NCBI GenBank assembly: GCA_964276515.1 | Contig: OZ193909.1 | Location: 16,554,001-16,618,000, forward strand | Source: Gordius albopunctatus | Taxonomy: Eukaryota | DNA length: 64,000 nucleotides | Direction: 5' to 3' | Shown: in pieces, positions 1,481 through 62,478 of the stretch | How positions within the stretch are numbered: the stretch's first letter is position 1 | Layout: each line of letters begins with the position of its first letter | Made by a program: the position numbers and the translations under genes | Notes under the pieces: model-generated | Told to the model about the DNA's origin: nothing | Seen by the model: only the letters and a program-made list of their open reading frames with translations | Databases searched by the model: none

Positions 1481-2563
1481 CTCCCTATTTGACGTCAATC
1501 TTCCACATAATGCATATAGAATTAGACCTTTAGATAGTGTTCATTTCTTTTTAAATTTAAAATAGAAAAGAGAGTTATAAAATGTTCCAAGCAAAACATT
1601 TATATAGGCACTTACAGGACAATTGTTTTAATAAAATATACAATGCAATAAAACTTTTTATACTGAATGTGAGACCTCAATAAAGTTTTTTATATGGTTT
1701 CAGTAGCTTTAAATATCATGATCTTAAAATATATATCCCGAACAGACGTAATCTTAAATCAATTTAAAGCCTGCTCACAAATTTTATCGAGGTTTTATGC
1801 TGAGCTCAATTCTACCCGGGGAGTCACCAGGGCGTCAGGCCGTCCACGCTTTAATATTATAGGTGATCAAAATTTTATAATATAATTCCTGAAAAATCAT
1901 CGCAGGTTTCCAATTCACTTCCACCCTATAGTAAATGCCTTCGGTCCTTCTACCACTAATAAGAATCTATCATGCTCCAGTAATACTATTGATGCCCAGC
2001 AGACTGATTGAGGTAGATGTATCAAGTAATCACTCTTAAGTCCAAAGTACTCTAGTTTTTTTGTTTTGATTAGATATTTTGACGTTCTCTACTTTTTGCT
2101 ATAACATTATTACTAAAGCGTTCTGTTCTAAAGTTAGGATATTCATATTTAAGAATTAAGTTTTTTCTTCAAGTTTCTAGTGTGGCTTTGAATAATAAAG
2201 GGATTCTTTTTTCTATGAAAAGAGTCGCTATTTTAATTAATTGTGTTTATTTGATTTATATTATCATAAAAATAATATTTAGCACCTATAAACGAAGTGT
2301 AAGCGTGTTGCGTCCATTGACTTAATTGCCTTACTTACATTACCTTACTACTTCGCAACGTTAATTGACCAATCAAGCATACCTCGCGGAGACACAACTA
2401 AATTGATTTATTTATATCTCGCGGAGGCACCACTAAACTTGATTGATTTATTCAATTAATTCACGAGTATATAAAAGGAGTTTAAAACTCTTTTTACTCA
2501 CTGGCTTTTCTTCCAACGATTTAATTTATATTATACAATAAAGTAATTATTACTTAATCCTAC

Positions 2564-2746
2564 TGTTTAACTTGAATTGTTTTTCCTTTGATATGATGTA
2601 TTTTCAATAGTTATTATTTTTAACAGCTGATTCTATATCTTTTTTTAATCTCTTCAATATGTTACAATAGCGATAATCTACCTTTTATATAATACAACTT
2701 ATAATATTATATTAATCCCCGCTTGGAAAGGTTACAGATCCTTACA
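2564..2746 (-). repeat. 3' LTR of element A
   Basis: Direct repeat of 8213-8395; on - it begins TGTAAG immediately after the polypurine tract and ends AAACA next to the TSD. Confidence 0.95.
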
Positions 2747-3478
2747 CCTCATTCTTTCAAATTGAGGGCCCACCAGGTCCGTACTGTCCCGCCCTGGAGT
2801 ATTTACTAATAACGTCATCTCTTCCTCCGGGCTGACCACGACCTGACTGTTGTTCCTTGTAACCACTTCCACACGTACCGGTTCCGTCGTCGTGTACGTG
2901 ACTACCGGAGCTATCGACATCACTGACGCTACCGATTCTACCGGCGGTACCGTCCTCTCCTGTCTTGCTTGCCTGAACGGGATTCTTCGCCTACACATCG
3001 GCATTCGGTGCCAGCTTCGGCATCCCCTGCAAAAGGCTCTAGTTTGCCTTATAGCTGTCGGCTGTCCTGCCTGTGGATAACGGGATGAGCTCCTTCTTTC
3101 TTCCGCCCTCGCCACGGGACGTATCTGGCGATTTTGGGTGTTTTGCGTTGTATTCGCTCGGGCTGCACGCGGGGTCACATTCTGACGCTGCACCCGGTCA
3201 ACTCGTCCAGCTAAGCTCCGGGCTTGGCCACGGTGTCTGGGTACCGTGTTGCTCTGCCTACCCGTATTAGGCCTAGCCGCTTCCTGACGTGTTGTCCGTC
3301 TATGTCTACCCGCCGCCCTTTCCTCCGTACGGGTGTTTTCGTGGCGCACGCTAACGTAGGGTTCCATTCTCCGTCGCTCTCGGACCTCAAACACTATCGG
3401 TCTCGGTTTCCCCCTACGTTCGTGGTCTAGTGCTCTCAAACGCACCTCTACGATCACCCATTCCGTTCGATATTCCAT
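2732..3478 (-). CDS. Element A ORF3: 248-aa Arg/Gln/Thr-rich protein with a C-x2-C-x3-H-x4-C knuckle, in the env position
   Basis: Open 248-aa ORF between the pol stop and the 3' LTR; motif CRGCRSWHRMPMC; pyrimidine tract + AG directly before its ATG; ends 15 nt inside the LTR. Confidence 0.75.
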   Translation of the reverse strand: MEYRTEWVIVEVRLRALDHERRGKPRPIVFEVRERRRMEPYVSVRHENTRTEERAAGRHRRTTRQEAARPNTGRQSNTVPRHRGQARSLAGRVDRVQRQNVTPRAARANTTQNTQNRQIRPVARAEERRSSSRYPQAGQPTAIRQTRAFCRGCRSWHRMPMCRRRIPFRQARQERTVPPVESVASVMSIAPVVTYTTTEPVRVEVVTRNNSQVVVSPEEEMTLLVNTPGRDSTDLVGPQFERMRCKDL

Positions 3479-3501: not shown

Positions 3502-6500
3502 CTATATTAATCTAGAGCGTAACTGTTCCACGTGTCGCACGTGTCTACCCGGAGAAGCTAGCACTTCTATCTCGTACATTTTAGTACCTTTCCGAGATAG
3601 GATCTTAGCTTCTAACCATTTTTCTTTCCCTATATAATTACGCGCCCACACAGTATCACCGATTTTAAATTTAGAATCGCCCTGTGATCTGGTGTCTGAT
3701 TGCGCTGCCTGTAACATCGTATCCACTGGCGTGTGTGGTAAACGGCCCAGAAATATCTCGCCAACTGGTTGTCGAGAAGGGAACCTTGGTGCGACGTTGT
3801 GGTAAAGTCGATAAAGCCAAGTTCCGTCCTTTTCAACCTTAGCGTTCTTCAACCATCGTTTCACCACTGCCACGTGTCTTTCCGCGAGTCCATTCGTACT
3901 CGGATGATACGGAGGGGTAAGTAAATGCTGTATTCCCCATTTACTACAAAATTGTTTGAACTCGACGCTTGCAAAAGCTGTGCCGTTGTCGGATATAATC
4001 TTTTTCGGTATACCATACGCACCTGCAAGATTTTTTAAGAAATCGACCACTACTCCCGTAGATAACTTGCTCACTTGTTTATATTCAACCCAACTCGAGT
4101 GCGCATCTACGAGAATAATATATCTTTTTCCTTCAAAATCAAAGAAGTCCAGGTGTACTCTTTCCCAAACTTGTGTTGTGGACGGCCATCTGGCCTTTTT
4201 GTCGTGTCTTGGCGTCCTGGCAAGTTTTCCGCATTGCCCGCATTGTCCCACGAACAAGGTAATATCCCTTGATATCTTGGGCCACCAGACGTGTCTTTTC
4301 GCTAGACCTTTCATCTTGGCTATACCCGTATGACCTGCATGAAGTAATTCGAGTACCTGAGGTCGCAGCACCAACGGAATTACTATATTTTCGTTGCGTA
4401 GTAACACGTTGTTGTTGACCTCGAGTTCGTTTATTAAGCCTCGATAAGTCGATGGTAACGTTTCTAGTGTACTCTTCCCCGTCAAGTAATTTAACACCAA
4501 AATTAATTCTGGATCCTCTTGTACTAATTTGGCAAGATCGACATCTCCGCAATTTTGTGTTATTACGTTCACTTCAGCGAAGTTTTCGCCTTCTAACTCT
4601 TCGAAAGTTAGGTCATCATTATCGTTTCCTAGTCTCGATAATGTGTCTGGCAAGTGATTTGATTTACCTTTTCGGTATTTTAATGTTGCGTTGAAATTTC
4701 CCAGCGCCAATAACCATTTTTGCAGTCTCGGACTTAACAATAGATCCCTGTTGTCCTTTGCAAAAAGTGATACCAGCGGTTTATGGTCGGTAAAAATATC
4801 GAAACTTCGACCAATTAAGTATTCACGGCAACGGGTCAAACTCACTACTACCGCCAAAGCTTCCTTTTCAATCACCGAGTAATTAAGTTCAGCTTTGGTA
4901 AATTTTCGTGAAAAATATAGTATTGGGTGTTCCTCCTGATTGATCACATGCAACAGCACACCGCCTACACCTAGCTGTGACGCATCCACCGCTACGGCTA
5001 ATGGTAGATCGGGAACAAAGCATGTCAGAACAGGACCTTTCGTTAAAATATTCTTTAATGCGTCGAAAGCTTCCTGCTCCTTGTTCCGCCATATAAATCT
5101 TACTTTGTCCGTCGTCAACAAGTATAAAGGTGCCGCTATTTCCGCGATGTTAGGCATAAACTTGTTGTAGTAATTCACCGACCCAAGAAAGGATAGTGTC
5201 TCTTTCTTATTCTGTGGTGGTCGCATTTTAAGGATCGCATCCACTTTGCTTTGTAAGGGACGAACGACTCCATTACCCAATTGATGTCCCAAATATTTTA
5301 GTTCCGTCACTCCTATGACACATTTACTACGTTTTACCCGTAATCCTCGTTCCTGGATTCGTTCTAACACTGCCAACAAGTTATTATCGTGCTCCTTCAT
5401 TGTAGCTCCCACTACAAGAACGTCGTCTAAGTAGTAAAACACACCAGAAAGACCTTGAAATATTGATGCCATGGTCTTCTGAAACACGGGCGCACTTAGG
5501 CTGAGACCGAAGGGCAGTCTTTTAAACGCAAACAAGCCTAAGGACGTGTTTATTGTGGTTAACTTCGACGAGCGGTTATTTAACTTGATCTGGAGGTAAG
5601 CGTTAGCAAAATCCAACTTACTAAAATATTTGGCACCCTTCAGATTTGCGAAGATCTCTTCTATTCTGGGTAGGGGGTACTTTATTTCTACTATCCACGG
5701 GTTAAGAGAAACCCTGTAGTCCGCGCAAAGGCGCAAGCTGCCGTCTGGTTTTTTTACTGGCACCAGTGGCGTAGCCCATTCGCTATATTCCACCGGCTCG
5801 ATTATCCCTTGCTCTATCCATTGAAGCAAGATGGCTTCTACTTTCTCCCGCCAAACAAATGGTATCCTTCTCGCTGGCCAAAACTTTGGTACAGCGTCTG
5901 GCTTCAGTAGGATATCATACTCGTATCCCTTTAGGCATCCAAGCTCGTCTATAAAGATAGACGTGAACCTTTCCAACATCCATTGTAGACTTCCTGACCA
6001 ACCACTTAGGGACCGGACTGCATCGCCACCCATAAGATTACGAGTGTCGGTAGAAGATGTCGGTTGACCCCCCGACTCACTTTTTACCGATAGTCCGTTT
6101 ATTTCAGCTCCGAGAGAGGTAGACTTTAGAGCCCAAGCCATAAATGGCATCCTTAAGGGGTTCCTACCTGCTCCGCCGAAATCTTTTTCACCCATTTCCT
6201 GTGGCCCACTACATTGGATTTTTTTGCATAAGCCAAACCACTTGTTCAACGGCCCTATCATTTTAAGCCATTCCCACCCCAAAATCGGTCTAATCTCCAC
6301 GGACGTGATATATAGGGGTAAAGTTAACTTATTATTCTCGATAATAATTTCTACCTTTACCTTACCTATGACCTTAATTTCCGACCCATCCACTTGTTTT
6401 ATTTTAAGGTTCGGTCTTTCCCAGTGTCTATGGGGCCACAATTTTTTAAATTTGGTTACCCCCATTAGAGTTATGGTCGCACCCGTATCCATAAGAAATT

Positions 6501-7422
6501 CCACCTTCCTATTATCCACCCATAAATTAACTAACGGAATTTTATTTAAATGCAACCCTCCCATTAACCCTGCCAAACTTACACTATTATCCTTACTTTT
6601 ATTAATTACATTATCCCTACTAACTTCATTTTCTGCTATTTCCTTAATAAAACTTTCGTTAAACCTTGCGTTTTTTTCTATTCCGTTTTGATTCTTATTA
6701 CCAAGTGTTCTGAATACTTCAACCTCATTCTTTTCTTTCCTTACTTTTAAAGGAAAGCATTGCAAGGAGGGCCTACTATCTACTGGTAATTTTATGATTG
6801 TGGTTGACAGGGACCTTAAATCTTGTTTTTTAGGCCAAGATTTTATAGTAGAGGAGAATGCTCTAGAGGAGGGATATGCATGTGGCATATGTCTCTTATT
6901 AAAAGGCAAAGGGGACAATAACGAGGGTATTTTTATTTTAGGTTTAAAAGAGGGATATACATATGGTCTATTCCCTTTTAAATATTTAATTACCAGAGAA
7001 GCCGATAATAACGAGGGTATTTTTATTTTATGTTTAGTGAAAGATAAAGTAGTAGGGCATGTGCTCATCGAAAGGGACATTAAGGGAGGGATTAATGGTT
7101 TATCAAAGGGAACCGCTTTGATTAGGGATGGTAAAGTTATATTACTATTTTCAGTAGGGGGGATGGTTGGAATTCTACGCGGTTTTATATTTGATTTACG
7201 CCCAAGTTGGATAGGTTTAGTTGAGCTTAGAGTAATCTCTTTAAGGCGGTTGAAGCTATTTATTGGGGTAGGGGTTTTTGTTTTATTTATTAGACCAGGG
7301 GGGGTTGGAATATTTACTAGGGGAGGGGATATTGTGCTGTTTAGTAGGGGAGGGGTTTTTGGGCTTTTTGTTTTGGGAGAGGATTTTGGGATATTTAATT
7401 TGGGCGGGGATTTTTTTATCAT
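3502..7422 (-). CDS. pol: Element A Pol polyprotein (Pro/Lys/Ser-rich N-terminal region, aspartic protease, RT, RNase H, integrase)
   Basis: Motifs: protease FLMDTGAT; RT WATPLVPVKKPDGSLRLCADYR and YYLDDVLV; RNase H VDAS, EKEALAV, TDHKPL; integrase H-x3-H...CGQC, HLDF, SDNG, GLAERH; C-terminal SH3-like segment. Domain order is Ty3/Gypsy. Confidence 0.97.
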   Translation of the reverse strand: MIKKSPPKLNIPKSSPKTKSPKTPPLLNSTISPPLVNIPTPPGLINKTKTPTPINSFNRLKEITLSSTKPIQLGRKSNIKPRRIPTIPPTENSNITLPSLIKAVPFDKPLIPPLMSLSMSTCPTTLSFTKHKIKIPSLLSASLVIKYLKGNRPYVYPSFKPKIKIPSLLSPLPFNKRHMPHAYPSSRAFSSTIKSWPKKQDLRSLSTTIIKLPVDSRPSLQCFPLKVRKEKNEVEVFRTLGNKNQNGIEKNARFNESFIKEIAENEVSRDNVINKSKDNSVSLAGLMGGLHLNKIPLVNLWVDNRKVEFLMDTGATITLMGVTKFKKLWPHRHWERPNLKIKQVDGSEIKVIGKVKVEIIIENNKLTLPLYITSVEIRPILGWEWLKMIGPLNKWFGLCKKIQCSGPQEMGEKDFGGAGRNPLRMPFMAWALKSTSLGAEINGLSVKSESGGQPTSSTDTRNLMGGDAVRSLSGWSGSLQWMLERFTSIFIDELGCLKGYEYDILLKPDAVPKFWPARRIPFVWREKVEAILLQWIEQGIIEPVEYSEWATPLVPVKKPDGSLRLCADYRVSLNPWIVEIKYPLPRIEEIFANLKGAKYFSKLDFANAYLQIKLNNRSSKLTTINTSLGLFAFKRLPFGLSLSAPVFQKTMASIFQGLSGVFYYLDDVLVVGATMKEHDNNLLAVLERIQERGLRVKRSKCVIGVTELKYLGHQLGNGVVRPLQSKVDAILKMRPPQNKKETLSFLGSVNYYNKFMPNIAEIAAPLYLLTTDKVRFIWRNKEQEAFDALKNILTKGPVLTCFVPDLPLAVAVDASQLGVGGVLLHVINQEEHPILYFSRKFTKAELNYSVIEKEALAVVVSLTRCREYLIGRSFDIFTDHKPLVSLFAKDNRDLLLSPRLQKWLLALGNFNATLKYRKGKSNHLPDTLSRLGNDNDDLTFEELEGENFAEVNVITQNCGDVDLAKLVQEDPELILVLNYLTGKSTLETLPSTYRGLINELEVNNNVLLRNENIVIPLVLRPQVLELLHAGHTGIAKMKGLAKRHVWWPKISRDITLFVGQCGQCGKLARTPRHDKKARWPSTTQVWERVHLDFFDFEGKRYIILVDAHSSWVEYKQVSKLSTGVVVDFLKNLAGAYGIPKKIISDNGTAFASVEFKQFCSKWGIQHLLTPPYHPSTNGLAERHVAVVKRWLKNAKVEKDGTWLYRLYHNVAPRFPSRQPVGEIFLGRLPHTPVDTMLQAAQSDTRSQGDSKFKIGDTVWARNYIGKEKWLEAKILSRKGTKMYEIEVLASPGRHVRHVEQLRSRLI

Positions 7423-7524
7423 TATTTTGGGAAGGGATTTTTGGATAATTATTTTGTGAGGGTGGGGGACTGGACTTAATGATTTCAGATAATTATTTAC
7501 CGGTGTAGCAGCCCTCCCTGGTTG

Positions 7525-7869
7525 CTATTCTTTCTCCCCCTTCCTGCACCTACAACTACAGGTGCTAGGGCCAGGTTCTCCCTCTCTAGATACCTGTCTT
7601 TCCCCTTTAAAATTATTTTCACCTCGGGGTCTTTCTTGCCATACCCCACGCCCCTCTTTAGGACAATTCCTTCTTATATGGCCCCTTTTATGGCATAAAA
7701 AGCATTTTGGCCCATTTTTATATTCTATTGCACATATTATTTCATTATTCTTTTTAACCAACCAAACTAAAACCATGACTATTAACATTAAAACTATTAT
7801 AATTATATTTTCGCGTATACAATTAAATACTATGTTAATACTAAAAGTAGGTGGCTTAGTACCAAACAT
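7525..7869 (-). CDS. Element A ORF1: 114-aa protein with a hydrophobic helix and CCHC zinc knuckle (minimal Gag-like)
   Basis: Hydrophobic run IIIIVLMLIVMVLVWLV followed by KK; canonical C-x2-C-x4-H-x4-C knuckle CFLCHKRGHIRRNC; its TAG stop is in frame with pol. Confidence 0.8.
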   Translation of the reverse strand: MFGTKPPTFSINIVFNCIRENIIIIVLMLIVMVLVWLVKKNNEIICAIEYKNGPKCFLCHKRGHIRRNCPKEGRGVWQERPRGENNFKGERQVSREGEPGPSTCSCRCRKGEKE

Positions 7870-8199
7870 TTTAAAAAGTAAAATCTATTCAAATATCAAT
7901 GATGACAAAAGCAATTTTATTAATGCTATACGTAAAACCCTAAAAGAACAAATTAAATAAAATATAAGTACTATAAAGATAATTAATAAGTAGTTATTCA
8001 TATTATTTATGTAACTAAATATTATTAATTCGAAAAAAATATAATATTCAAACCAAAAATTCAGAAAAACTATTTATTCATAAATTTCATAAACTATTTG
8101 AATAAAACTTACACTCATTAAGTTGTATGTCGGATCCACGTATTTTTGTTTCGAATTTCGCACGGCTTGTTTTCTACTAACGGCTATGGGTACTTCTGT

Positions 8200-8210
8200 T
8201 TCTGACACCA
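8200..8210 (-). promoter_or_regulatory. Primer-binding site of element A (tRNA-Leu type)
   Basis: TGGTGTCAGAA two bases after the 5' LTR CA end; complementary to the ...TTCTGACACCA 3' end of eukaryotic tRNA-Leu. Confidence 0.8.
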
Positions 8211-8212
8211 AT

Positions 8213-8395
8213 TGTTTAACTTGAATTGTTTTTCCTTTGATATGATGTATTTTCAATAGTTATTATTTTTAACAGCTGATTCTATATCTTTTTTTAATCT
8301 CTTCAATATGTTACAATAGCGATAATCTACCTTTTATATAATACAACTTATAATATTATATTAATCCCCGCTTGGAAAGGTTACAGATCCTTACA
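8213..8395 (-). repeat. 5' LTR of element A
   Basis: Direct repeat of 2564-2746; contains TATATAAAAG and a downstream ATTAAA on the - strand. Confidence 0.95.
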
Positions 8396-8494
8396 CCTAC
8401 ATAATATTTACTTCTCGAAAGTGGTGACCCACCCTTGTTATACGCCTCCTTCTACCCTACCCTTACCCAACCCTGGTTATACGCAACCTTGTAA

Positions 8495-9304
8495 ATGGAT
8501 ACCAACCAAGTTGATGATGTCCAAATTAAATCGGAAAACGCTATATTTTTCAAATTGCCCCCCTTCAATCGTATAAATCCCCGATTATGGTTTGTCCAGA
8601 TAGAAGCCCTTTTCTCGATTCGACGAATAACATCTGAATCTAGCAAACTTGGATACGTGATAGAATGCCTCCCACAAGAAGTCACAATAGAGATCCAAGA
8701 TTACTTGGAGAATCTACAGGCTGAGGCCCCGTACACTACCATCCGGTCAGCTATCATCGACCGCACAACAAAATCGGACTTAGCACGATTCCACGACCTA
8801 CTGTCCAACGTGGAATTGGGCGATCGTACACCCTCACAACTCCATAGACACATGAAAAGCCTCCTGGGTACCGCCAAAATGGACGACATCATTTTAAAAC
8901 AACTGTGGTTGGAAAACCTGACAACCAGCATCTTGGCGATCTGTGCAAGTGACCAGACGTTAGTCAAGCTAGCTGAAACAGCTGATAAAATCGCGGAAAC
9001 GTACCATACGCCGCAAATATCCAACGTCGCCCCTGCCACACAGAGATCCCGCAACGATATTGAGACGCTCAGAGACATGGTCAATAGACTGAGCGTGAGC
9101 ATCGAGACATTACGGCAAGAGGTCAGTCAGAAAAATTGTTTTCGGTCGAGAAGTAGGTCTACATCAAGGCGATTTCGATCCCCGTTTCAACCCCACGCAG
9201 ACTTTCCCCAGGATTGGTGTTGGTATCACCAAAGATATAAGGAAAAGGCCACGAAATGCCGACAACCTTGCAATTATATCCCGATTTCCTTGTCAAACCC
9301 ATAG
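8495..9304 (+). CDS. gag: Gag of element B (CsRn1-like, CHCC zinc motif)
   Basis: N-terminus KLPPF...PRLWFVQIEALF, LGDRTPSQL, RSRSRS tract and CWYHQRYKEKATKCRQPC (CHCC), typical of CsRn1-clade Gag. Confidence 0.85.
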   Translation: MDTNQVDDVQIKSENAIFFKLPPFNRINPRLWFVQIEALFSIRRITSESSKLGYVIECLPQEVTIEIQDYLENLQAEAPYTTIRSAIIDRTTKSDLARFHDLLSNVELGDRTPSQLHRHMKSLLGTAKMDDIILKQLWLENLTTSILAICASDQTLVKLAETADKIAETYHTPQISNVAPATQRSRNDIETLRDMVNRLSVSIETLRQEVSQKNCFRSRSRSTSRRFRSPFQPHADFPQDWCWYHQRYKEKATKCRQPCNYIPISLSNP

Positions 9305-12300
9305 GCCTGCCAGAATCCGCCACACCCGGTTCAGGCCATAACATCAATCGCTTATTTTTTATTTTTGATAAATTAACGAAATTTTGTTTTTTAATAGACA
9401 CTGGCGCGGAAATAAGTGTCATACCACCCCCACGTAACCACCATCTCACCCCCTCACACATCCGCTTCCAAGCTGCAAACAATAGTTCCATACTGACCTA
9501 TGGCCAGAAATCAATGGAACTGGACCTTAGCTTACGGAGAAGTTTTCATGGGTGTTTACCATCGCCGACGTTAAGACACCGATCATCGGGGCTGATTTTT
9601 TAAATCATTATAACCTCCTCGTTGATATACGCCGCAAATGTTTATTAGACCCTAAGACTACTTTAAAGTCTTATGGGCGATATATTGATTCGAGCTTGTA
9701 CAATTTACAACTCGCAATAAAGATCGATTCACCGTATTTTAAAAATGTTTTAAAAGATTTCCCCGAGATTTATACCCTTCCAAATTAAAGGTCACGCGTA
9801 AGCCACCAAGTAGTCTACCACATACGTACACTATGACCCCCCGTTTATGCCAGACTTAGACGCTTAGACCCTGTCAAGCTAAAAATTGCCAAACAGGAGT
9901 TTACTCATATGCTCGAACTCGGCATAATTCAACCCTCAGAAAGCTTCTGGAGTTCTCCATTGCACATGGTTCCGAAAAAAACTCCTGGAGATTGGCGACC
10001 ATGTGGAGATTACCGAGCCCTTAACGTTATAACGATACCGGACCGTTACCCCTTGCCACACCTGCACGATTTCTCACTTAACCTAGCCGGCACAACCATC
10101 TATACAAAAATACATCTAGTCAGAGCTTACCATCAAATACCCGTAGCCTTGGAGGACATCGCAAAGACTGCAATAACCACACCTTTCGGTCTTTATGAAT
10201 TTTTTCGAATGCCTTTCGGTTCGCGAAATGCTGCTCAAACATTCCAACGCTTCATTGATCAAGCTCTCCGTGGTCTCAATTTCGCCTTCGCATATTTGGA
10301 CGACATTTTGATCGCAAATACATCAACTAGTGAACATTTAGACCACTTACGTCAAGTTTTTACTCGATTAAGAGATTTTGATATAAAGATCAACCTGGAC
10401 AAGTGCCAATGGGGACGTTCCTCTCTAGATTTCCTAGGACATCAAGTTTCCTCACAAGGTTTAACGCCAATATCGGAAAAGATCTCAGCCATCAAGAATT
10501 TCGCCACCCCGACCACTATGACACAACTACGTCGTTTCGTGGGAATGGTAAATTTTTACAGGTGTTTTATACCCAACTGTGCACGACATCTACAACCACT
10601 GACGGATCTCCTCAACGACGCAAAAGGACCTTTGGACATGACGCAGAGCGCACACGACGCATTCCACAAGATTAAAATAATGCTCGATAAAATTTCGACC
10701 CTTAATCATTTAGTTCATGGTGGCAACATCTCTAATACAACCGACGCGTCAAACTCTGCCATTGGAGCCGTACTACATCAGACCGTAAAAGGGGAAATCA
10801 GTCCTTTATTCTTTTTCTCCCTGAAATTGAGCAAAACACAAACTCGATACAGTACATTCGGGAGAGAACTGCTAGCAATTTATCTTTCAATTAAACAGTA
10901 CCGACATATTTTAGAAGGTCACGATTTTACAGTTTTTACTGATCACAAACCGTTAACTTACACTCTCAATTCTAAACCCGATAAATACTCGCCGCGCGAA
11001 ATACGACAATTAGACTATATCTCCCAATTTACTTCAAATATACAGTTTATTAAAGGTAAAGCGAATATAGTAGCAGACACTTTGTCCCGAATCGATATCG
11101 ATTCCATACAACAACCAAACTCCACCCAACAGCCGAACACATCCCTCACAGAAATAATTGCTATGACACAAAAACAAGAGCAATATTAACTAGAAGAGCT
11201 CGAAAGTCTTAAACTGGAACAACGCGTAATTCCAGGTACAAATTTAACTATTACGTGCGATACATCTGCATCGACTTCGAGACCTTTAGTACCTAGGACG
11301 CTCCGACGCATAGTTTTTAATCAACTACAAGGTCTTTCTCACCCAGCCTTATGCCCAACACTTAGACTAATTGCCCAACGTTTCGTCTGGCCGGGAATGA
11401 ACAAAGATGTACGCGATTGGACAAAGCAATGCATTGCGTGTCGAAAATTCAAAGTAAATAGACACGTAATATCAACCCCAGGCACGTTCGCTGAACCAGA
11501 CGCAAGGTTTAGCCACGTACATGTAGATCTCGTCGGACCCTTACCACCTTCTAACGGCCACATTTATATTTTTACTGCCGTTGATCGTTTCACCCGATGG
11601 CCGATTGCAATTCCCATTATTGACGCAACAGCCGAAACCGTTACACGCACATTTTTGACATACTGGATAGCCAACTTTGGTGTTCCGGCGACATTAACCA
11701 CGGACCGGGGACCGCAATTTCAATCTGCCCTTTTTAAACAATTATCTATTTTATTAGGGTATCATCATATCACTACGACAGCTTACCATCCACAAGCCAA
11801 TGGGATGGTAGAGCGATTTCACCGATAGCTCAATCATGACAAAAGGTGACGTTACCCGTTGGTCCGAACTTATTCCCCTTGTACTCCTAGGGATTCGCAA
11901 CACCATCAAGGAAGACCTTGCCTATTCAAGCGCGGAGTTGGTATAGGGTACTTCTTTACGACTCCCAGGAGATTTTTTACAACCGTCGGATCGCGACATA
12001 AACGACGCCGATTACATCCAACGCCTTAGACAGCAGTTTGATGATGTACGATTCACACCTTCCAGACCATTGAACATCAAACAACAATTGTCCGAAAATT
12101 TATTTACATCAACTCATGTTTTTATAAGGACTGATCGGCTACGCAAAGCCTTGGTTCCCCCCTATGAAGGACCTTTCAAAGTGATTGAAAAACATACTAA
12201 ATTTTTTATCATAGACCACAAGGGCAGGAAAGACACTGTCTCAATCGATCGATTAAAGCCAGCTTTCCTCGAGCCTAAGGTTGATAACCCGAATTCATCA

Positions 12301-12351
12301 GTTGACTCAAATGCACCCAAACCAAACAATCACTCAACGGCTATACAATAA
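9256..12351 (+). pseudogene. pol: Disrupted pol of element B (PR-RT-RH-IN)
   Basis: FLIDTGAEISV, YLDDILI, TDAS, ELLAIY, TDHKPL, HVDLVGPLP, TDRGPQF, NGMVERFHR and PYEGPFKV are spread over several ORFs broken by frameshifts and stops (~9550, 9788, 11189, 11828). Confidence 0.92.
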
Positions 12352-12737
12352 AGTAATTATTACTTTATCCTACTAATACTTACTTCTCGAAAAGCGCATT
12401 GAAAAAATTGATACCCGTAAGCCTTCGTATTCAATTTTCGGTCTGCTTATGGTTGAGTTGGCGTTAACCCAATTGACAGTATACACATCCAAGAATTTAT
12501 TGATAATTTGATAATCGACAAGAAGTAACTTTAATAATAGAATCAAAGTAGCGATTCGATAGGTTATAAGGAAATATGGTAATACAATTGACGGGGAAAG
12601 GTTTTGGGAGTTATCCGAGGCCAGAATAATAATAATAATAGTGTGTCCTCTAACTGGAAACATGGCCTTTTTATAATACCAGGATTTCCTGATCCCAGCC
12701 TGTTGCTTATTAGGAGAAAATGTTATTAAATTAACCC

Positions 12738-19400: not shown

Positions 19401-22400
19401 CCGGCTTTTAACTTTCTGACTTGCAGGTTCTAGTACAATCCCCGGAGAGGACAAAAATTTTTTTTTTAATTAAATTAATATTTTGTTATTGTTAATACCA
19501 TTGATAATATGACTTTTTGACCTTCCGCTGGCTACTTACCAATGAAAAAAATGACCATTGACCAAATAAATCGAATTTTTTCCCCTTTTTGAAATTACCC
19601 TATGTCCTCCCGTAGAAGGGCCTATGCTTCTACTGATATGGGTCCCTGTGCCCCTACAAAAGCCTATGCCCCTACTGATGTGGGTTCGAATCCCGGAGAG
19701 GACAAATTTTTTTTATTAATTAAATAGAAAATTTGTATTAATAAAAACTAATTATTTTGCATTTAATACCCCCCTATAGCCATTCTCGCCCATAAATTGC
19801 ATAGCAAATATGCTACTTTTATACAGAGTATAGATGAGTCGTTCCCCCTTCCCTCCTGCATCTCCCTCCCCACTTCCCTTCCCCCCTCCACCTTCCTGCG
19901 AAGGCCGAAGGCCCGAGTTTGTTAATATTTTGTTTTTTGATAGTTAAAACCGTTTTTTTCTGTTTATTTCAACTCTTGAGATTAATCGCTGGTATATTAT
20001 GCGTCTGAAATGAAAATCTGCTGTGAATTCGAAATTTAGACACGGCTATGTTATAACCCGTACAAAGATTTTCATCCGATATTAAGACAAGCTATAAGAA
20101 GGCCTTGTATTTTTTGTCTTGCGTTCTTCAGGGAGGCCCAAGGAGTTTTAATTAAGATTAGAAGAGGCAAATAAATCAATGCATGTAAAGTCCCATTTTA
20201 AAAAGCCATTTTACCGTGGGATTAGTGAGAAACCGTCAGGACGCATTCGACCTTCAAGGGGAGGAACCGAAGGTTAAAATATAGAAGGATTTTGGGCCTT
20301 TTTAAGGCCTCACTGGATAATGAAATTGATTTTAGAGTGCCCCGAGTGTCTAAATTTATATAGCCAACAATGTTTTATGGGTGGCGTACTTCTTCATCAA
20401 TTGGCACGTTGTAATTTTTACAGAGTTGTTAAGGAGCGCGCACCGGATTTCCGGTGCGACGTGCTGGTGCGCGTACTTTTTTATAACGAAGAGCGAGTGC
20501 GGGTGCGCGCACCTGATTAAGTCGGTGCGGGTGCGCAATTGCGCTCCTGTTTTGCTCACATTAAGAGTTTTACAATTTATTAATTTATTTGAAATTGTAT
20601 TATATCGCATATTTCACAAATTAAATTTCTACTGATTTACTATATATATAACATACATCTATGTTCCTGATGGAGAAGATAACAAGGTGGGAAATTGGTT
20701 ACTATCGATAGACAATAAAAATAATCTAACCGCGATATTTCACATTATTCACGTATTTACTTTATCAATCAACGATTAATCTTTACACTTTTGAACCTAT
20801 CTTTGCTATCGTAAGTTTAATCACATATAATGATCTAATTACAATTAATTTTAATTATTTATTTATATTATTTATTGTATTGGTTGTCATAGTACTCCTT
20901 ATCCAATTTTTTACTCTTTTCTTTTCTCACTGCTTATATATAACACCTTAATATGATAGTGAATTATGGAAATAGAAGAATCAAGCATAAATATAGCAAG
21001 CACATCATGCATGAAAATTTTTCCATTTCCAAAATATGCTAATATGTTTAAACTTAAAGATAATCAGCATAATACACTTAATTTTGAGGTGCAATGTCTT
21101 TTATGCAATGCCAAACTCAAGACTTCCTCTAGATCTTGTTTCAATTTGACTAGTCATCTAAAGGTAATCTTGTTACTTATTTTATAAAAAATTTATAGAG
21201 ATTTCATAGGACCTCTTTAGAAAATATAAAATATGACAATAAGAGAAAGAAAGTCTGTATTAATAAAGAAATTAAAAGGGTTGTGTGATTTAGATATATG
21301 CCAACCATTAGTGAATGCAATTATACAAGGGATCGTAAGAAGTTTTTATATATATAATAAACTTTAAATTATTCCTTGTATTTAAAAAGATTCCCAAATT
21401 TATATGACGATAATGTTATTGCAGCAGCAATTCTCAACCCTTTATTTAAAACAAATTTCAGTTGGTGCTATCAAGATGAAAACAAACCTATATTAAAAAA
21501 AAAATTCGATTAATTGAAAGTCAAATCACGCCAGGCGTGGAGGAAAAAGAAGTTTATGAACGTAAAGACTTTGATGATTTTTTCGAAATAAAATTAAAGA
21601 ACATAAAACAACTTTTCAGATGAACAAATTCTTGAGTGAAGGAAATTGTTGAAATATATCCAAAGTTGGTAGAAGATATCATAATTCAACGGTTTTATCT
21701 CCTTCCAAAATGCGCAAAGATTTAGCTAATGATTCCATAACCTATAAATCGATATGTAAATTTATAAACAGCTATTATGTCTGCTTAAAATGTAAAACTT
21801 ACTAAAGAATACTCACGAATAAATACTCTTTCTTCTTCTTTGAACCTAGATAAGCCTATTTCATCAAACAGATCATACAAATCGTATTTTTTGTTATCAA
21901 GCAATTTATTTAATAAATTCACAGCCTCATAATAACTATTACACCTAGTTTTATTTGGGGTAATTAAATATATTCCAATTTTCTCTTTATATATATCAGC
22001 CAACCGAGTGGACATATTTTGCTTATTCCACAAATTTTGGCATTTGTTAAATGTTGAACGAAATATTTTTTTAAAATTGTTATTCAAAAATGCTTCCTTG
22101 ATATCAACACTGGCTACCAAATTAAGACAATGACAAGCACAGCGCCCATGTTTTGGCAAATGTTCTGATTCTTCTTGAGGACAATTACTTATTATATCTT
22201 CAATATCCGCACTCTCTAAATCTTCATCTTGTTCCTGAACATCAGAATGTATTGTCTCTTCTTCATACACCCTATAACATATGCTTTATTTTTTTAAATA
22301 TACATGAAGGCTTTTACAAAGTTGTATCCATTGTCGATAATGGTTTGAACAACTTTGTTGTGAATTTTGAATTGCTTATGCACATCAATGATGTTCTTAG

Positions 22401-31091: not shown

Positions 31092-31830
31092 CTATTCTAA
31101 TATATCATCATCGAGGGGATCTTCCAAAATTGGCCAAGAATTGGCGAACGATTTAAAATTGTACTTGACTATAAGAATACCAAGTCGTTGTTTAAGTAAA
31201 AAGGATACCGAATGTTTAGACGGGGGAGAACGTCTTCCTACATCTTTAAAAAAGGCTAAGGCCTGTTTGCCAAAGGTGCCTGAACACGAAGCAGCCAATA
31301 GAATAAAGATTTTTGAGGATAATAGGGCTTTGTATTTATTAGTTCTCCGCCCCTCTGCGACAGCTAAAGAATCATTGTTGTAGTTAGAGGGGGCAAATAG
31401 GTCAATACACGTGAAGTCCCATTTAAGGTGAAAACCATTGCTCCATGGGACTAAAGAAGATCCATCAGGACGCATACGTCCCTCCAAGGAAGGGTCCGAT
31501 GCCTCCAAGATGGATGGGATATTAGCTCTCTTCAGTGCACTTTGAATTAAGGTATTGGCCTTATTGTGTCTAACATATTTTAATTTGTTTGCCAGTCAGT
31601 GTAAGGGATGCCTGGCTTGCTCGTCTACGAGTATGCTGCAATTTCGGCAAATAAATAGCTTCGAAAATTTCACCCCTAGCCTGAGAGCTATGGAGTACGA
31701 AAGTTCCGAGTCCTCCAGCATCATCCCGGTGAGACAGCTTGGGTAGACCTCTAGCCATTCGTGACCTGAGCCATCAAACAAAAACGACCTTAAATTAGAA
31801 CACTGACTTGCATCGCTACTCGAAATTAAA
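31092..31830 (-). mobile_element. CRE-like non-LTR retrotransposon 3' fragment, copy 3 (Zn finger + restriction-like endonuclease)
   Basis: GHEWLEVYPS, CRNC...HPLH, RMRPDGSSLVPWSNG.HLKWDFTC and AEGRRTNKY; typical RLE domain of CRE-type elements; 5' truncated. Confidence 0.85.
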
Positions 31831-32625
31831 TTATATTTAAGTCTTTTGTATTTCTCATTACCCTTAAGATAATCGATACTATTTGTTAATTAATATAATA
31901 TTTTTATTCACTTATTATGCGTTCAAATAAGATGTGGATTCTAGGCAACATTAGTAATTGTCTGCCTTTAGTCATTTTTATTAAACAGTCCTTTACTCCT
32001 TTCACTTTCTACCTTGTGAAACAAAGCTGTCCTTCGATTAACTAAGCGCTCATGTACAAGTCGTGCATGCGACCTCAATTATAGTATATTCGAATTATCG
32101 TGAAACCCTTTATGATTATAAAAATTTCTATTTGACTAGATTTGATTTGGTAAATATATGTTTTCAATTTTCCTTCTATCAGATATATTAAAAATATAAA
32201 AATTGTTATTTGTATTGTAAATATTACTTTCCCTGAGTACGTTCTGTATAAACTCTTTAGGACAATACAAAACTTTCCATATATAATATTATATTTAGTT
32301 TATTTAACGTTAAAAATTTGATATTTTACGTTTATTGTAACAGTAGAAAATACGTTTGTAATGGGGAATGCGGTCAAGGTGCGCCAAAGTTGTGTAACTC
32401 CGATTTTTTTACACAGATTGAGTGTATCAAAAATTTGGTGTCCATATCTTTTCAGGACCTTATCGCACAAAAGTGGATTTTAGGTTTGTGCTAAGTGAGC
32501 ATGTGGTTTTTCATGTTGATTTTCATAGATGCCTGTACATTACAGTTTGTTCGATATAAGGTACTATAGGCGATCCCAAGCTTGCGTGATGTGGGATTTT
32601 ATTTCCCAGCCGTTTGGATAGGCGG

Positions 32626-59484: not shown

Positions 59485-62478
59485 TAGTGCTGTAAACATT
59501 TGTAAAAAAATCGAACGCGTTCAACGTTCATTGACAAAAATCGAACGCGTTCACGTTCACGTTCGTTAAGAAAAAAAAGGAACGCGTTCACGTTCGTTCA
59601 AAATTTTATGATAATTTTTTTAAAATTTAATTTAATATAAATAAATGTCTTATATTTTTTAATACAATAAATAATAGCCATGATAAAAAAATGATAGTTT
59701 TATTTCTACAATATAATTGTAAATCAATATAATTATAATCTAATAGAGCGAATATAAAGGTTTTTTATTTATAAAAAATTTTTCTTATTGATTTTTAATA
59801 ATAATTGTTTCTCAAAATTGTCGTCTGATAAGCAGGAACGCTTGGCAGTTAATACAGCATTAGCTATACTAAAAACCCGCTCCACAGGGGCAGATGAGGG
59901 GATTGGAGTATTATACTTAATAAACAAATTTTTTAAAGGAGGAAATTTATTAAAAACATTTAATGTTTTGTCCCTCGCTTCAAAAAATTGCGACAAGATA
60001 TCATCCTCTAATCCGCCCTCTACTTCCTCGTCAAAAAAATGATATCTCGGAATTGACAGCTCTTTCGTTATCAATTCTAGGGGTTTCAATCCCTTTTTTC
60101 AATAACACTAAAAGATTATTCTTTAAAGCTTCATTTTCTCGAAGTTTAATCCAAGGCCATTGAAGCTTGAACATTGGATGTATAATGGCCGAAAGAAGAT
60201 ATTGATCTTCATATATATGTTGAAATCTTTAAAAAAATAAAATATATGTAATTAATTTGATAGTAATAGGTTTGTTACCTTTTATTAATCCCATTTAATA
60301 CAGCGTCAATCAATGGTTGACCATATTTTAGGCTAGTAATTTTTTTTAATTTCAAAATAACTATTGTTATTGTTGGAGTCAAATAGCCCAAATGCATATT
60401 TTCCTCACTTTCTAAAATAGTAAGAGCGGTAGCAACAGGTTCCATGATCTATTTTAATATTTGAAATTTATTATATTATTTATCCTAAAAAATTTTATGA
60501 GGACTTACAGTACAGTATTCTTCCAAAAATATTTTATCATTGGTTGTAAGCCTTGCTAATCCTCCCATGTCGCATACTTTGTCAAATAAATGAGGTTTAT
60601 CTTTTATTAATGAGTCTATTAATTTTAAGGAATTATAATATGAATTCCATCTTGTAACAACAGGTCTTATAAGCATCCTTGATAAATTTTTCTTTACATC
60701 ATCAGCAAATGATGTTGACTGATTTTGCTTGTTCCATAAATTTTTGCATTTATCAAATGCACTTTTTAATGTTTTTAAAAGATGGAATTTCTAGTGCCTT
60801 TTCAGCATCGACACTTGCCACTAAATTAAGATTGTGGCATGCACAAGAGTGATGTTTTGGTAGGTAAATAAAATTTTCCTGCCTACTTTGATATTGAAAT
60901 ATTTCATATAATGAAAATGACACAATTTCATCTTCATCATCTTCAGATACTTTCTCAAATAACCTATAATTTGTTTAAAAATATAAAATGTAGATTATTT
61001 ATTTATACCTAAAGGCCTTTAAAAAATTTCTTGCATTGTCAGTGACACATAATGCCACCTTGTTCTGTATCTTAAATCTTTTAAGAAGGTTTGAAATTGT
61101 TTCTGCTAAATAATCAAATGTATGTTTGCTAGTTAGCCTTTGGCAAGCTAAACATGCTGATTTTCTTTCTAAAGTGACTACATCCAACCAGTGGACAGTC
61201 ATGCCTAAAAACGAACTAATAATATTAAGAAATTGATTTCAAATTATGCACAAATTACCGATGGTATGATGACCATGAATCCGCTGTGATACAAAGAAAG
61301 GTTTGGTTGGCTAAACAAGTAATTATTTTATCTATCATGATGTTATAATTTTTGGATATTTTTGATATAAGCGTTGGGCGGGACATAACATTTTTATTAG
61401 GTTGTAAAGTGGTTATCATTTTTAAAAATGAAGGTTTTTCAACTATATTAAATGGCTGTAGATCTTCTATCACAAAATTGATTATTACATCATCTATCTG
61501 TGATTGATTCACATATGAATATGAATCATTTTTGTTACAGTTTAGATTCTGTTGTTTGAATTTTTCCCATTTTACCTTTTTATTATTTTTATCAGAAGAT
61601 TTTGAAAGATATTCATTTATTTCTTTTGTCATATTATCATGATGGTTCTATAAAAATAAAATACTATTATGCTATAGATGATATTAATAGATTTTTTAAT
61701 ATTTATATTCAAAGTTTTACATATCCTAGATACCTTATTTTTTGCAAAAATCTTATACTATTCCCTATTTTAAATATATTGACAAACAAAATTAGCTTCA
61801 ATAAAATTACTAGTCTCCCTTCCATATCTATGCTAAGAATGGACTAATATTAATATTAAAGTGTCTTAAAGGTATTAAAATTTGTATCTAAGATATATAC
61901 TTATATATATAATAATATTATATTACCATAAGGTGTCTTTTTAGATTTGAGCTCGACCCTTTTGAAACAGATATCATACTTTTTGGACACATTTTACATT
62001 TGGTAATTATATTTGATCCTTTATATGAAACGAGTGAAAAATATTTTTCATATTTTGGCCATGGCAATTTCAATTCATCTTCTGATTTTGAATATTCAGA
62101 ATCTGAAGATGACGACGATATAATAATATGATTGTCCATATTAACCTATAAATTAAACTATAATTAATAATATGAAATTAATTAACTTTAATCTTATCTA
62201 CTTTTGCACGTTATAGTATGTTAAAAGTATTTCTGAATCGGTAATAGGAAACAAGAAAAACAGCTGATTAAAAAATATAAGAATTTTTTGTTTAAAAATT
62301 CAAATTAACATTATTTTTCAAATAAATAAAAATGAAGATTTTTAAAATTGAACGAACGTTAAATTCGAACGCGTTCATCAAAAAAGGAACGCGTTCACGT
62401 TCAAAGTTCACCAAAAAAAAAAAGAACGCCGTTCACGAACGCGTTCACAAAAATTGAACGCGTTAATTTACAGCACTA
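59485..62478 (-). mobile_element. Full-length hAT DNA transposon (~3.0 kb)
   Basis: TIRs TAGTGCTGTAAA / TTTACAGCACTA; perfect 8-bp TSD CTTATGAC; GAACGCGTTCA subterminal repeats at both ends; spliced transposase inside. Confidence 0.95.
59769..62139 (-). CDS. hAT transposase (BED finger, DDE core, dimerisation domain), six exons, one apparent frameshift
   Basis: Approximate exons: 62139-61928, 61648-61259, 61215-61009, 60963-60509, 60448-60279, 60227-59769. Motifs CKMC...NLKRHL, ITADSWS, VTDNARN, CACHNLNL, TRWNS and PSSAPVERVFS. The frame breaks in an A-run near 60772-60776. Confidence 0.88.

Follow-up and report, generated by a model that had tools for sequence, protein, structure and literature searches.

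An LTR retrotransposon with UAG between ORF1 and pol

We analysed a 64,000-nucleotide (nt) stretch of the Gordius albopunctatus assembly (GCA_964276515.1, contig OZ193909.1, positions 16,554,001 to 16,618,000; herein the window), and all coordinates are positions within it. On its minus strand lies a long terminal repeat (LTR) retrotransposon of ~5.8 kb with TG...CA termini (8395-2564; Table 1). The LTRs, primer-binding site and target-site duplication are those of a Ty3/gypsy element (Metaviridae), as is the order of the Pfam domains, protease-reverse transcriptase (RT)-RNase H-integrase. That the insertion is recent is evident from its identical LTRs, its target duplication and its uninterrupted pol. 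The primer-binding site is presumably of tRNA-Leu type; no tRNA gene for comparison was found within the window. Ahead of pol, and in its frame, is a short open reading frame (ORF1) that ends in TAG.

On the minus strand the junction reads GAA TAG CAA CCA GGG, with TAG at 7527-7525, as an earlier note on this DNA had described it. The frame after the stop is open for 1340 codons (7524-3502); its first Met is codon 35 (7422), leaving 1306 residues, in agreement with that note's 34 sense codons leading into a 1306-residue pol. The other two frames are shut within ~10 codons past TAG. ORF1 measured from ATG 7869 has 114 residues, and the sum 114 + 1 + 1340 gives the 1455 residues that the note had proposed for an ORF1-Pol fusion. 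Its reading of the stop context also holds, in that CAA-CCA directly 3' of the stop fits UAG-CAR-YYA, the type I readthrough signal of tobamoviruses, benyviruses, pomoviruses and Providence virus (PMC3542737). The UAG thus stands in frame between two ORFs, and the window shares the CAA-CCA behind it with the nearest family of public runs X1 and X2 (see below). Within the element, 0.2% of positions carry CAR-YYA, and it stands behind 8 of the 1803 TAG triplets of the window; a stop-free run of 34 codons is by itself not rare, being found at 7.5-12% of background positions. On this sequence evidence, Pol is probably produced by programmed readthrough of the UAG in a high-copy, Mag-like family.

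A stem may begin 6 nt past the stop; it is not stronger than in shuffled sequences and is a lead only, and Rfam returned no matches across 7200-8500. Matches to the junction pattern elsewhere (four viral and two metagenome loci) were all due to chance, none of them with pol. An alternative code with TAA or TAG as sense was ruled out: neither triplet occurs within the 1340 codons of pol, which terminates in TAG-TAA.

Table 1. Features of the element and its junction, in window positions
Feature	Positions	Strand	Evidence or remark
5' LTR, 183 nt, TG...CA	8213..8395	-	no difference from 3' LTR over 183 nt
3' LTR	2564..2746	-	LTR comparison
Target-site duplication, 5 bp	8396..8400; second copy 2559-2563		
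Primer-binding site, 11 nt, starting 2 nt past LTR	8200..8210	-	
14-codon upstream ORF, ORF1/pol register	8074..8118	-	candidate splice donor GT 8112, two codons past ATG
38-codon hydrophobic ORF, predicted membrane peptide, ORF1/pol register	7885..8001	-	KD19 2.85
ORF1, 114 aa (amino acids): predicted membrane helix and one CCHC knuckle	7525..7869	-	
Predicted transmembrane helix, ORF1 aa 22-38	7756..7806	-	KD19 2.87
CX2CX4HX4C zinc knuckle, ORF1 aa 56-69	7663..7704	-	PF00098, E 0.0011, 19.3 bits
UAG-CAA-CCA, candidate type I readthrough site	7519..7527	-	sequence, relatives' contigs
Possible stem from 6 nt past stop	7464..7518	-	minimum-energy fold, -12.7 kcal/mol, z -0.10
pol frame, 1340 aa	3502..7524	-	Pfam domains
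34 Met-free codons past stop	7423..7524	-	frame retained in relatives
Pro/Lys/Ser-rich linker, 330 aa, 9-codon repeats, stop to protease	6535..7524	-	
A-run, seven A in window, six in nearest family (X1, X2)	7417..7411	-	
Protease	6540-6253	-	Pfam
RT	5757-5278	-	Pfam
RNase H	5091-4693	-	Pfam
Integrase	4377-3835	-	Pfam
ORF3, 248 aa, Arg-rich, CX2CX3HX4C knuckle	2732..3478	-	ATG adjoining pyrimidine-rich AG

The stop codon is shared by diverged lineages

Seven public runs from three studies carry the element or parts of it, and five were aligned to the window, all as contigs. A change was reported only at places at least 31 letters from the aligned end of a contig, and only such places were counted; 26 pieces are listed, 15 of them spanning the stop, and a further 77 stand outside the list. 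The contigs reveal an abundant, high-copy family that is split into lineages and present under two organism labels. TAG is unaltered in each of the six listed diverged contigs in which the site is visible (8-17% diverged; runs X1, X3 and X5; three studies), replaced neither by a sense codon nor by TAA or TGA, and across the stop site no substitution appears in the nearest family, in X1 or in X2. The X5 contig has a depth of 3.9 and matches an X1 lineage. A sense codon here in other copies, which the earlier note had named as one result that would speak against readthrough, is therefore not what these contigs carry. The codon ahead of TAG varies at all three bases, and variation is seen at 19 of 42 upstream places. 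Conservation of TAG-CAR-YYA as a whole, the check proposed in that note, is borne out for TAG, and four bases of the hexamer could be followed with a single change: among listed contigs with the place visible, C 7524 is constant in 7/7, A 7523 in 6/7, 7522 in 4/4 and 7521 in 2/2.

Because lineages 17% apart have the same TAG, the stop predates them, an argument from descent rather than from site statistics. The TAG is an inherited end of ORF1 and not a mutation private to this copy. It is most unlikely to be a nonsense mutation of this copy, or of a dead lineage, in what was a single-ORF element: a Gag of ~300 aa does share one ORF with Pol in 75 of the 120 relatives among the matches listed, and the same register holds two other stops, but every visible lineage has the same TAG, at distances of up to 17% and under both labels, pol is intact and the LTRs do not differ.

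The frame behind the stop

The linker between the stop and protease has no Pfam match, and its first 250 aa contain 17% Pro and 2% acidic residues, versus 2-6% and 11-17% in 66 capsid regions. Inspected by eye, the frame is open in 10 of 11 loose contig ends listed at 7483-7511 (20 more are outside the list), with synonymous differences, and Ser-Pro is in register in all five listed ends that extend that far. The one end with a shut frame probably belongs to a defective lineage, as its depth of 491 equals that of a contig without 133 nt of ORF1. That deletion lineage (gap at 7602-7736, knuckle included) is amplified in runs X1 and X2, at depths of 491 and 156. Among the best 40 of 189 rows, 11 linker substitutions are listed, five of them synonymous and none creating a stop; the codon-position bias of listed changes is weak (linker, P 0.31; ORF1, P 0.07; 8075-8002, P 0.04).

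AUG 7422, the first in the pol frame, is not a conserved start, since it is replaced by Ile in most of the depth of X3 (2669/2907) and X6 (1538/1708). This bears on the possibility that the UAG truly terminates translation and that Pol has a start of its own, through reinitiation, a non-AUG codon or an internal promoter in the junction, for which Tca2 is a precedent (PMC2194720). The first three AUGs past the stop share the pol frame, AUG 7422 has A at -3, and serial short ORFs seem to be in use upstream. Yet the Met-free codons ahead of AUG 7422 stay in frame in all the listed loose ends bar the exceptional one, the AUG itself runs into a stop in the nearest family, and CAR-YYA is left unexplained; we consider a fresh start improbable.

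Several observations weigh against readthrough. Copies with a different junction would escape alignment, and the counts cover alignable families only; 8 of the 15 listed pieces spanning the stop are uninformative for TAG, and the AA 5' of the stop varies among relatives. A single X3 contig, with a depth of 201 out of 15905, has CAR broken by a Gln-to-Pro change at 7523, hexamer bases 7520-7519 and most of 7493-7520 are hidden in the diverged contigs, and invariance per site is weak (P 0.16 for the three fixed bases; Fisher P 0.07). At the A-run, 116 nt past the stop, the nearest family is one base short (depth 2473 in X1, 734 in X2), at a depth equal to that of its neighbouring contigs in both runs, and its frame ends at TAA 7397, 43 codons past the stop; the fusion proposed in the earlier note, correct in length for the window, is shut off there in that family. 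The seven-A form of the window is absent from all aligned contigs. Four groups of insertions or deletions fall in 7385-7524, two keeping the frame (-6, +6) and two breaking it (-1; -7, the latter in a single X3 contig with a depth of 195), and the stop and the repeats are never joined within one diverged contig.

More diverged contigs pass the A-run ungapped (X1 record 2, X3 record 9, X6 records 19-21) and the seven-A form preserves the 27-nt repeat period, so that of the two states the open frame appears the older. The copies with the one-base gap are most likely defective lineages, mobilised in trans by intact relatives. Alternatively, readthrough could be followed by a second step, a -1 shift at the A-run, the six-A form of which reads as an in-phase A_AAA_AAU; in that case the seventh A would be peculiar to the window or would stem from misassembly. 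In X1 and X2 nothing but the six-A form matches closely, and it does so at the full depth of the family; the -7 of the X3 contig is another offset of the -1 type. However, no fold lies behind the A-run (minimum energy 0), the ungapped contigs and the period kept in the window argue the other way, and defective lineages do amplify, as the lineage deleted in ORF1 demonstrates. We regard such a shift as unlikely.

Splicing, editing and the proposed route to Pol

The AG of the TAG might instead be a splice acceptor: if donor 8112 were joined to CAA, Pol would be made in frame and without ORF1, and the absence of TAA at this place would be accounted for. The donor-like site exists and the join is in frame with ATG 8118. 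The 14 bases ahead of this AG, however, include no pyrimidine, the poorest tract among the element's 176 YAG sites, compared with a pyrimidine fraction of 0.79 at the candidate ORF3 acceptor (3480-3479), and they remain purine-rich in variants, which makes splicing here highly improbable. Equally doubtful is A-to-I editing of the UAG in RNA, by which it would be read as Trp. UAG and not UAA is retained, and one fold places it in a short hairpin, but that fold is weaker than those of shuffled sequences (z 0.95), no long duplex is present and CAR-YYA would again go unexplained. With the open frame kept, AUG 7422 not conserved and the TAG the poorest of splice acceptors, readthrough remains.

We therefore envisage the following scheme, conditional on readthrough itself. 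Most ribosomes would halt at the UAG and release the 114-aa protein with its membrane helix and knuckle; a few percent, the range reported for type I sites (PMC3542737), would pass it, aided by CAA-CCA, and go on through the low-complexity linker of 330 aa to protease, RT, RNase H and integrase. The Pol precursor would be anchored in the membrane, with knuckle and enzymes on the cytosolic side, until cleavage by the protease frees the enzymes. ORF3, possibly a basic RNA-binding protein, would likely be translated from an RNA in which splicing joins donor 8112 to acceptor 3479, a junction in frame with ATG 8118.

ORF1, the upstream ORFs and ORF3

The transmembrane anchor that the earlier note assigned to ORF1 stands as a prediction: the helix scores 2.87 in hydropathy, and all six of the natural changes listed within it are synonymous or V/M to I. 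Its topology is based on a weak charge bias (3 vs 1 K/R). The knuckle falls slightly short of the PF00098 cut-off (20.8 bits), and the sole listed change at one of its Cys codons is synonymous. No relative of similar length was found for ORF1, nor any match in an atlas search. Matches among representatives numbered 106, nearly all of them to the knuckle only, and none of the seven inspected is a true homologue.

Upstream of ORF1 the ORF1/pol register is interrupted by two stops, TAA 8076 and TAG 7887, both missed by the earlier note, and is otherwise open to the LTR; over 8205-7528 it has these two stops vs 29 and 28 in the other frames. Within 8118-7870, which is 83% AT, 7.6 stops are expected against the two present (P 0.011). 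Each of the two is preceded by GAA and each is retained in the nearest family. The TAG ending the 38-codon ORF lacks CAR-YYA; its retention is seen in X1 record 6 and X2 record 15. A lineage in three runs has a one-base gap at 7878, so this ORF need not be continuous with ORF1. The 24 codons from TAA 8076 to ATG 8001 are hydrophobic, with a weak third-position bias (6/9, P 0.04), and may be translated as well.

ORF3 contains 51 K/R, and its stop is located within the 3' LTR. The join from donor 8112 to its acceptor resembles the env splicing of insect retroviruses; a further strong acceptor at 7940 would yield only a short peptide. No relatives of ORF3 were found, and its leads in the atlas all score <0.8, with zf-CCHC in two of the three displayed. 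Its knuckle, CX2CX3HX4C, is of a type present in the Gag of 33 of the 75 single-ORF relatives, and ORF3 may be a displaced piece of Gag. Two single-sequence structure predictions gave no usable information (pLDDT 40 and 37); confidence was low for the protease control too.

No detectable capsid domain

The odder feature of the element is its anatomy: a helix-knuckle ORF1, no detectable capsid, hydrophobic upstream ORFs and an Arg-rich ORF3. Pfam scans of ORF1, pol, the linker, ORF3 and two antisense ORFs gave no capsid family, and a profile of the capsid region of relatives scored <0 bits in all six frames of the element. This profile recovers 33/33 held-out relatives at >=65 bits yet fails to find a Ty3-type capsid, and it could likewise overlook a very distant one. 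The Gag profile of relatives matches only the ORF1 knuckle and, weakly (E 0.13), the second knuckle type in ORF3. Neither the Gag with capsid domain of Ty3/gypsy elements nor the ~300-aa Gag of Mag, with capsid region and knuckles ahead of the protease, is recognisable in the element. Because diverged contigs span the same 5' region (30/30 bins in X1, 30/30 in X2 and 29/30 in X3), the layout is common to the lineages.

LTR retrotransposons are thought to require a capsid for reverse transcription. The family is young and abundant, yet beyond Pol it shows nothing but membrane peptides, knuckles and sequence of low complexity. Reverse transcription would here be housed in a borrowed capsid, in a diverged capsid that goes unrecognised or in a membrane compartment, and each answer informs the evolution of retroelement particles. 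Tentatively, and at rather less than even chance, we suggest an autonomous LTR retrotransposon lineage, probably of horsehair worms, that has lost its capsid and replicates at membranes in the manner of capsid-less RNA viruses: the anchored knuckle protein would gather RNA, the leaky UAG would tether Pol and spliced ORF3 would condense the genome. No capsid-less LTR retrotransposon lineage was found in the literature, surveyed mostly at the level of titles and abstracts, with supplementary tables of the Repbase type outside its scope.

Affinity of Pol

The closest relative of Pol among the matches listed is protein P0001 of Gordionus sp. (47% identity; 58% in RT-RNase H); the other 119 are ~30-39% identical, and those with names are mostly K02A2.6-like. 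In a quick-search tree of 32 rows, with 28 of the first 30 single-ORF relatives usable and no named Mag reference, the window groups with P0001 (support 99) on a long branch outside the 28 single-ORF relatives (85). From its sequence, Pol is Mag-like and is not assigned as a member of Mag. The 5-bp duplication and short LTRs resemble those of Mag/K02A2.6-like elements, and both agree with a table of Culex Mag entries (PMC3286476), as does a Leu/Ser primer if the tRNA identity assumed above is right. A Mag-type capsid region is not detected, and the two types of knuckle, which stand in tandem in the Gag of Mag, are in separate ORFs here. The spacer between protease and RT motifs is 238 aa, vs 161-179 aa in relatives; this stretch (6250-5900) exceeds theirs by ~70 aa and is likewise long in P0001. 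A scan of metagenome contigs for Pol gave 67 pattern matches and no relatives.

Comparison with known recoding sites and membrane ORFs

Like the viral type I sites, the junction combines UAG, a fitting 3' hexamer and a polymerase downstream in frame. The viral cases have CAA-UUA, CAA-UYA or CAA-CUA; here CAA-CCA stands in an animal LTR retrotransposon known from sequence alone. The UAG-CAR-YYA motif is said to function in yeast and human cells, and the same report describes in-frame stops between the ORFs of Tca2 (Candida, copia), soybean SIRE1 and murine leukaemia virus (MuLV) (PMC2194720). MuLV differs in pairing its UAG with a pseudoknot. SIRE1 reportedly uses CAR-YYA at pol/env. A further point against readthrough is that the Tca2 junction resembled a readthrough signal and nevertheless gave none in a reporter (PMC2194720); the Tca2 stop is a UGA without CARYYA (PMC3441728).

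Such a junction is less unusual for Ty3/gypsy than the earlier note implied: an in-frame stop between the first ORF and protease-RT-integrase is documented in Tj1, Tosmo1-3 and Tcry1 of fission yeasts, is conserved in relatives and is required for Tj1 transposition (PMC4600332, bioRxiv 2022.12.06.519325). Those elements have TGA-CT and an annotated Gag, unlike the UAG-CAA-CCA, helix-knuckle ORF1 and 330-aa linker found here. Readthrough of a gag-pol stop as such is already known (Tj1, Tca2, MuLV), and what this probable recoding site adds is a natural example of UAG-CAR-YYA, with a conserved UAG, from an animal retrotransposon. No UAG-CAR-YYA gag-pol junction was found for animal Ty3/gypsy in a literature search mostly at title and abstract level, the scope of which left out two key surveys and supplementary tables.

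By its hydropathy, ORF1 is also reminiscent of the sORF2/FAST-like proteins of the MDG1 group, which are small, cross the membrane once and are encoded at the 5' end of env-less Ty3/gypsy elements (bioRxiv 2025.03.14.642691). Their N-myristoylation motif MGxxxS/T is missing (ORF1 begins MFG, the 38-aa ORF MNN), as is the polybasic patch with Tyr, the 15 aa after the ORF1 helix having 3 K/R, 2 D/E and no adjacent Tyr. MDG1-group elements also have a capsid. ORF1 has a 21-aa outer part, carries a knuckle and is in frame with Pol.

Other features of the window

Three consecutive plus-strand ORFs (80, 207 and 255 aa) lie in a single frame antisense to the element at 5825-7459. They have no Pfam match and are probably compositional in origin; over 7524-5825 this frame, one of several tested, has 4 stops vs 8.8 in codon shuffles (P 0.03). 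The element is inserted in another Ty3/gypsy element, within its 5' LTR; this second element is broken, lies on the plus strand (2532-2563, 8396-12400) and has a DUF7041 Gag (8495-9304), a frameshifted pol and an LTR copy near 12342. Farther along the window are an intronless Ser/Thr kinase ORF of 602 aa (PF00069; 48347-50155, plus strand) and, judged by eye, fragments resembling decayed hAT transposases and non-LTR retrotransposons at 21785-22285, 31092-31889 and 59769-61647.

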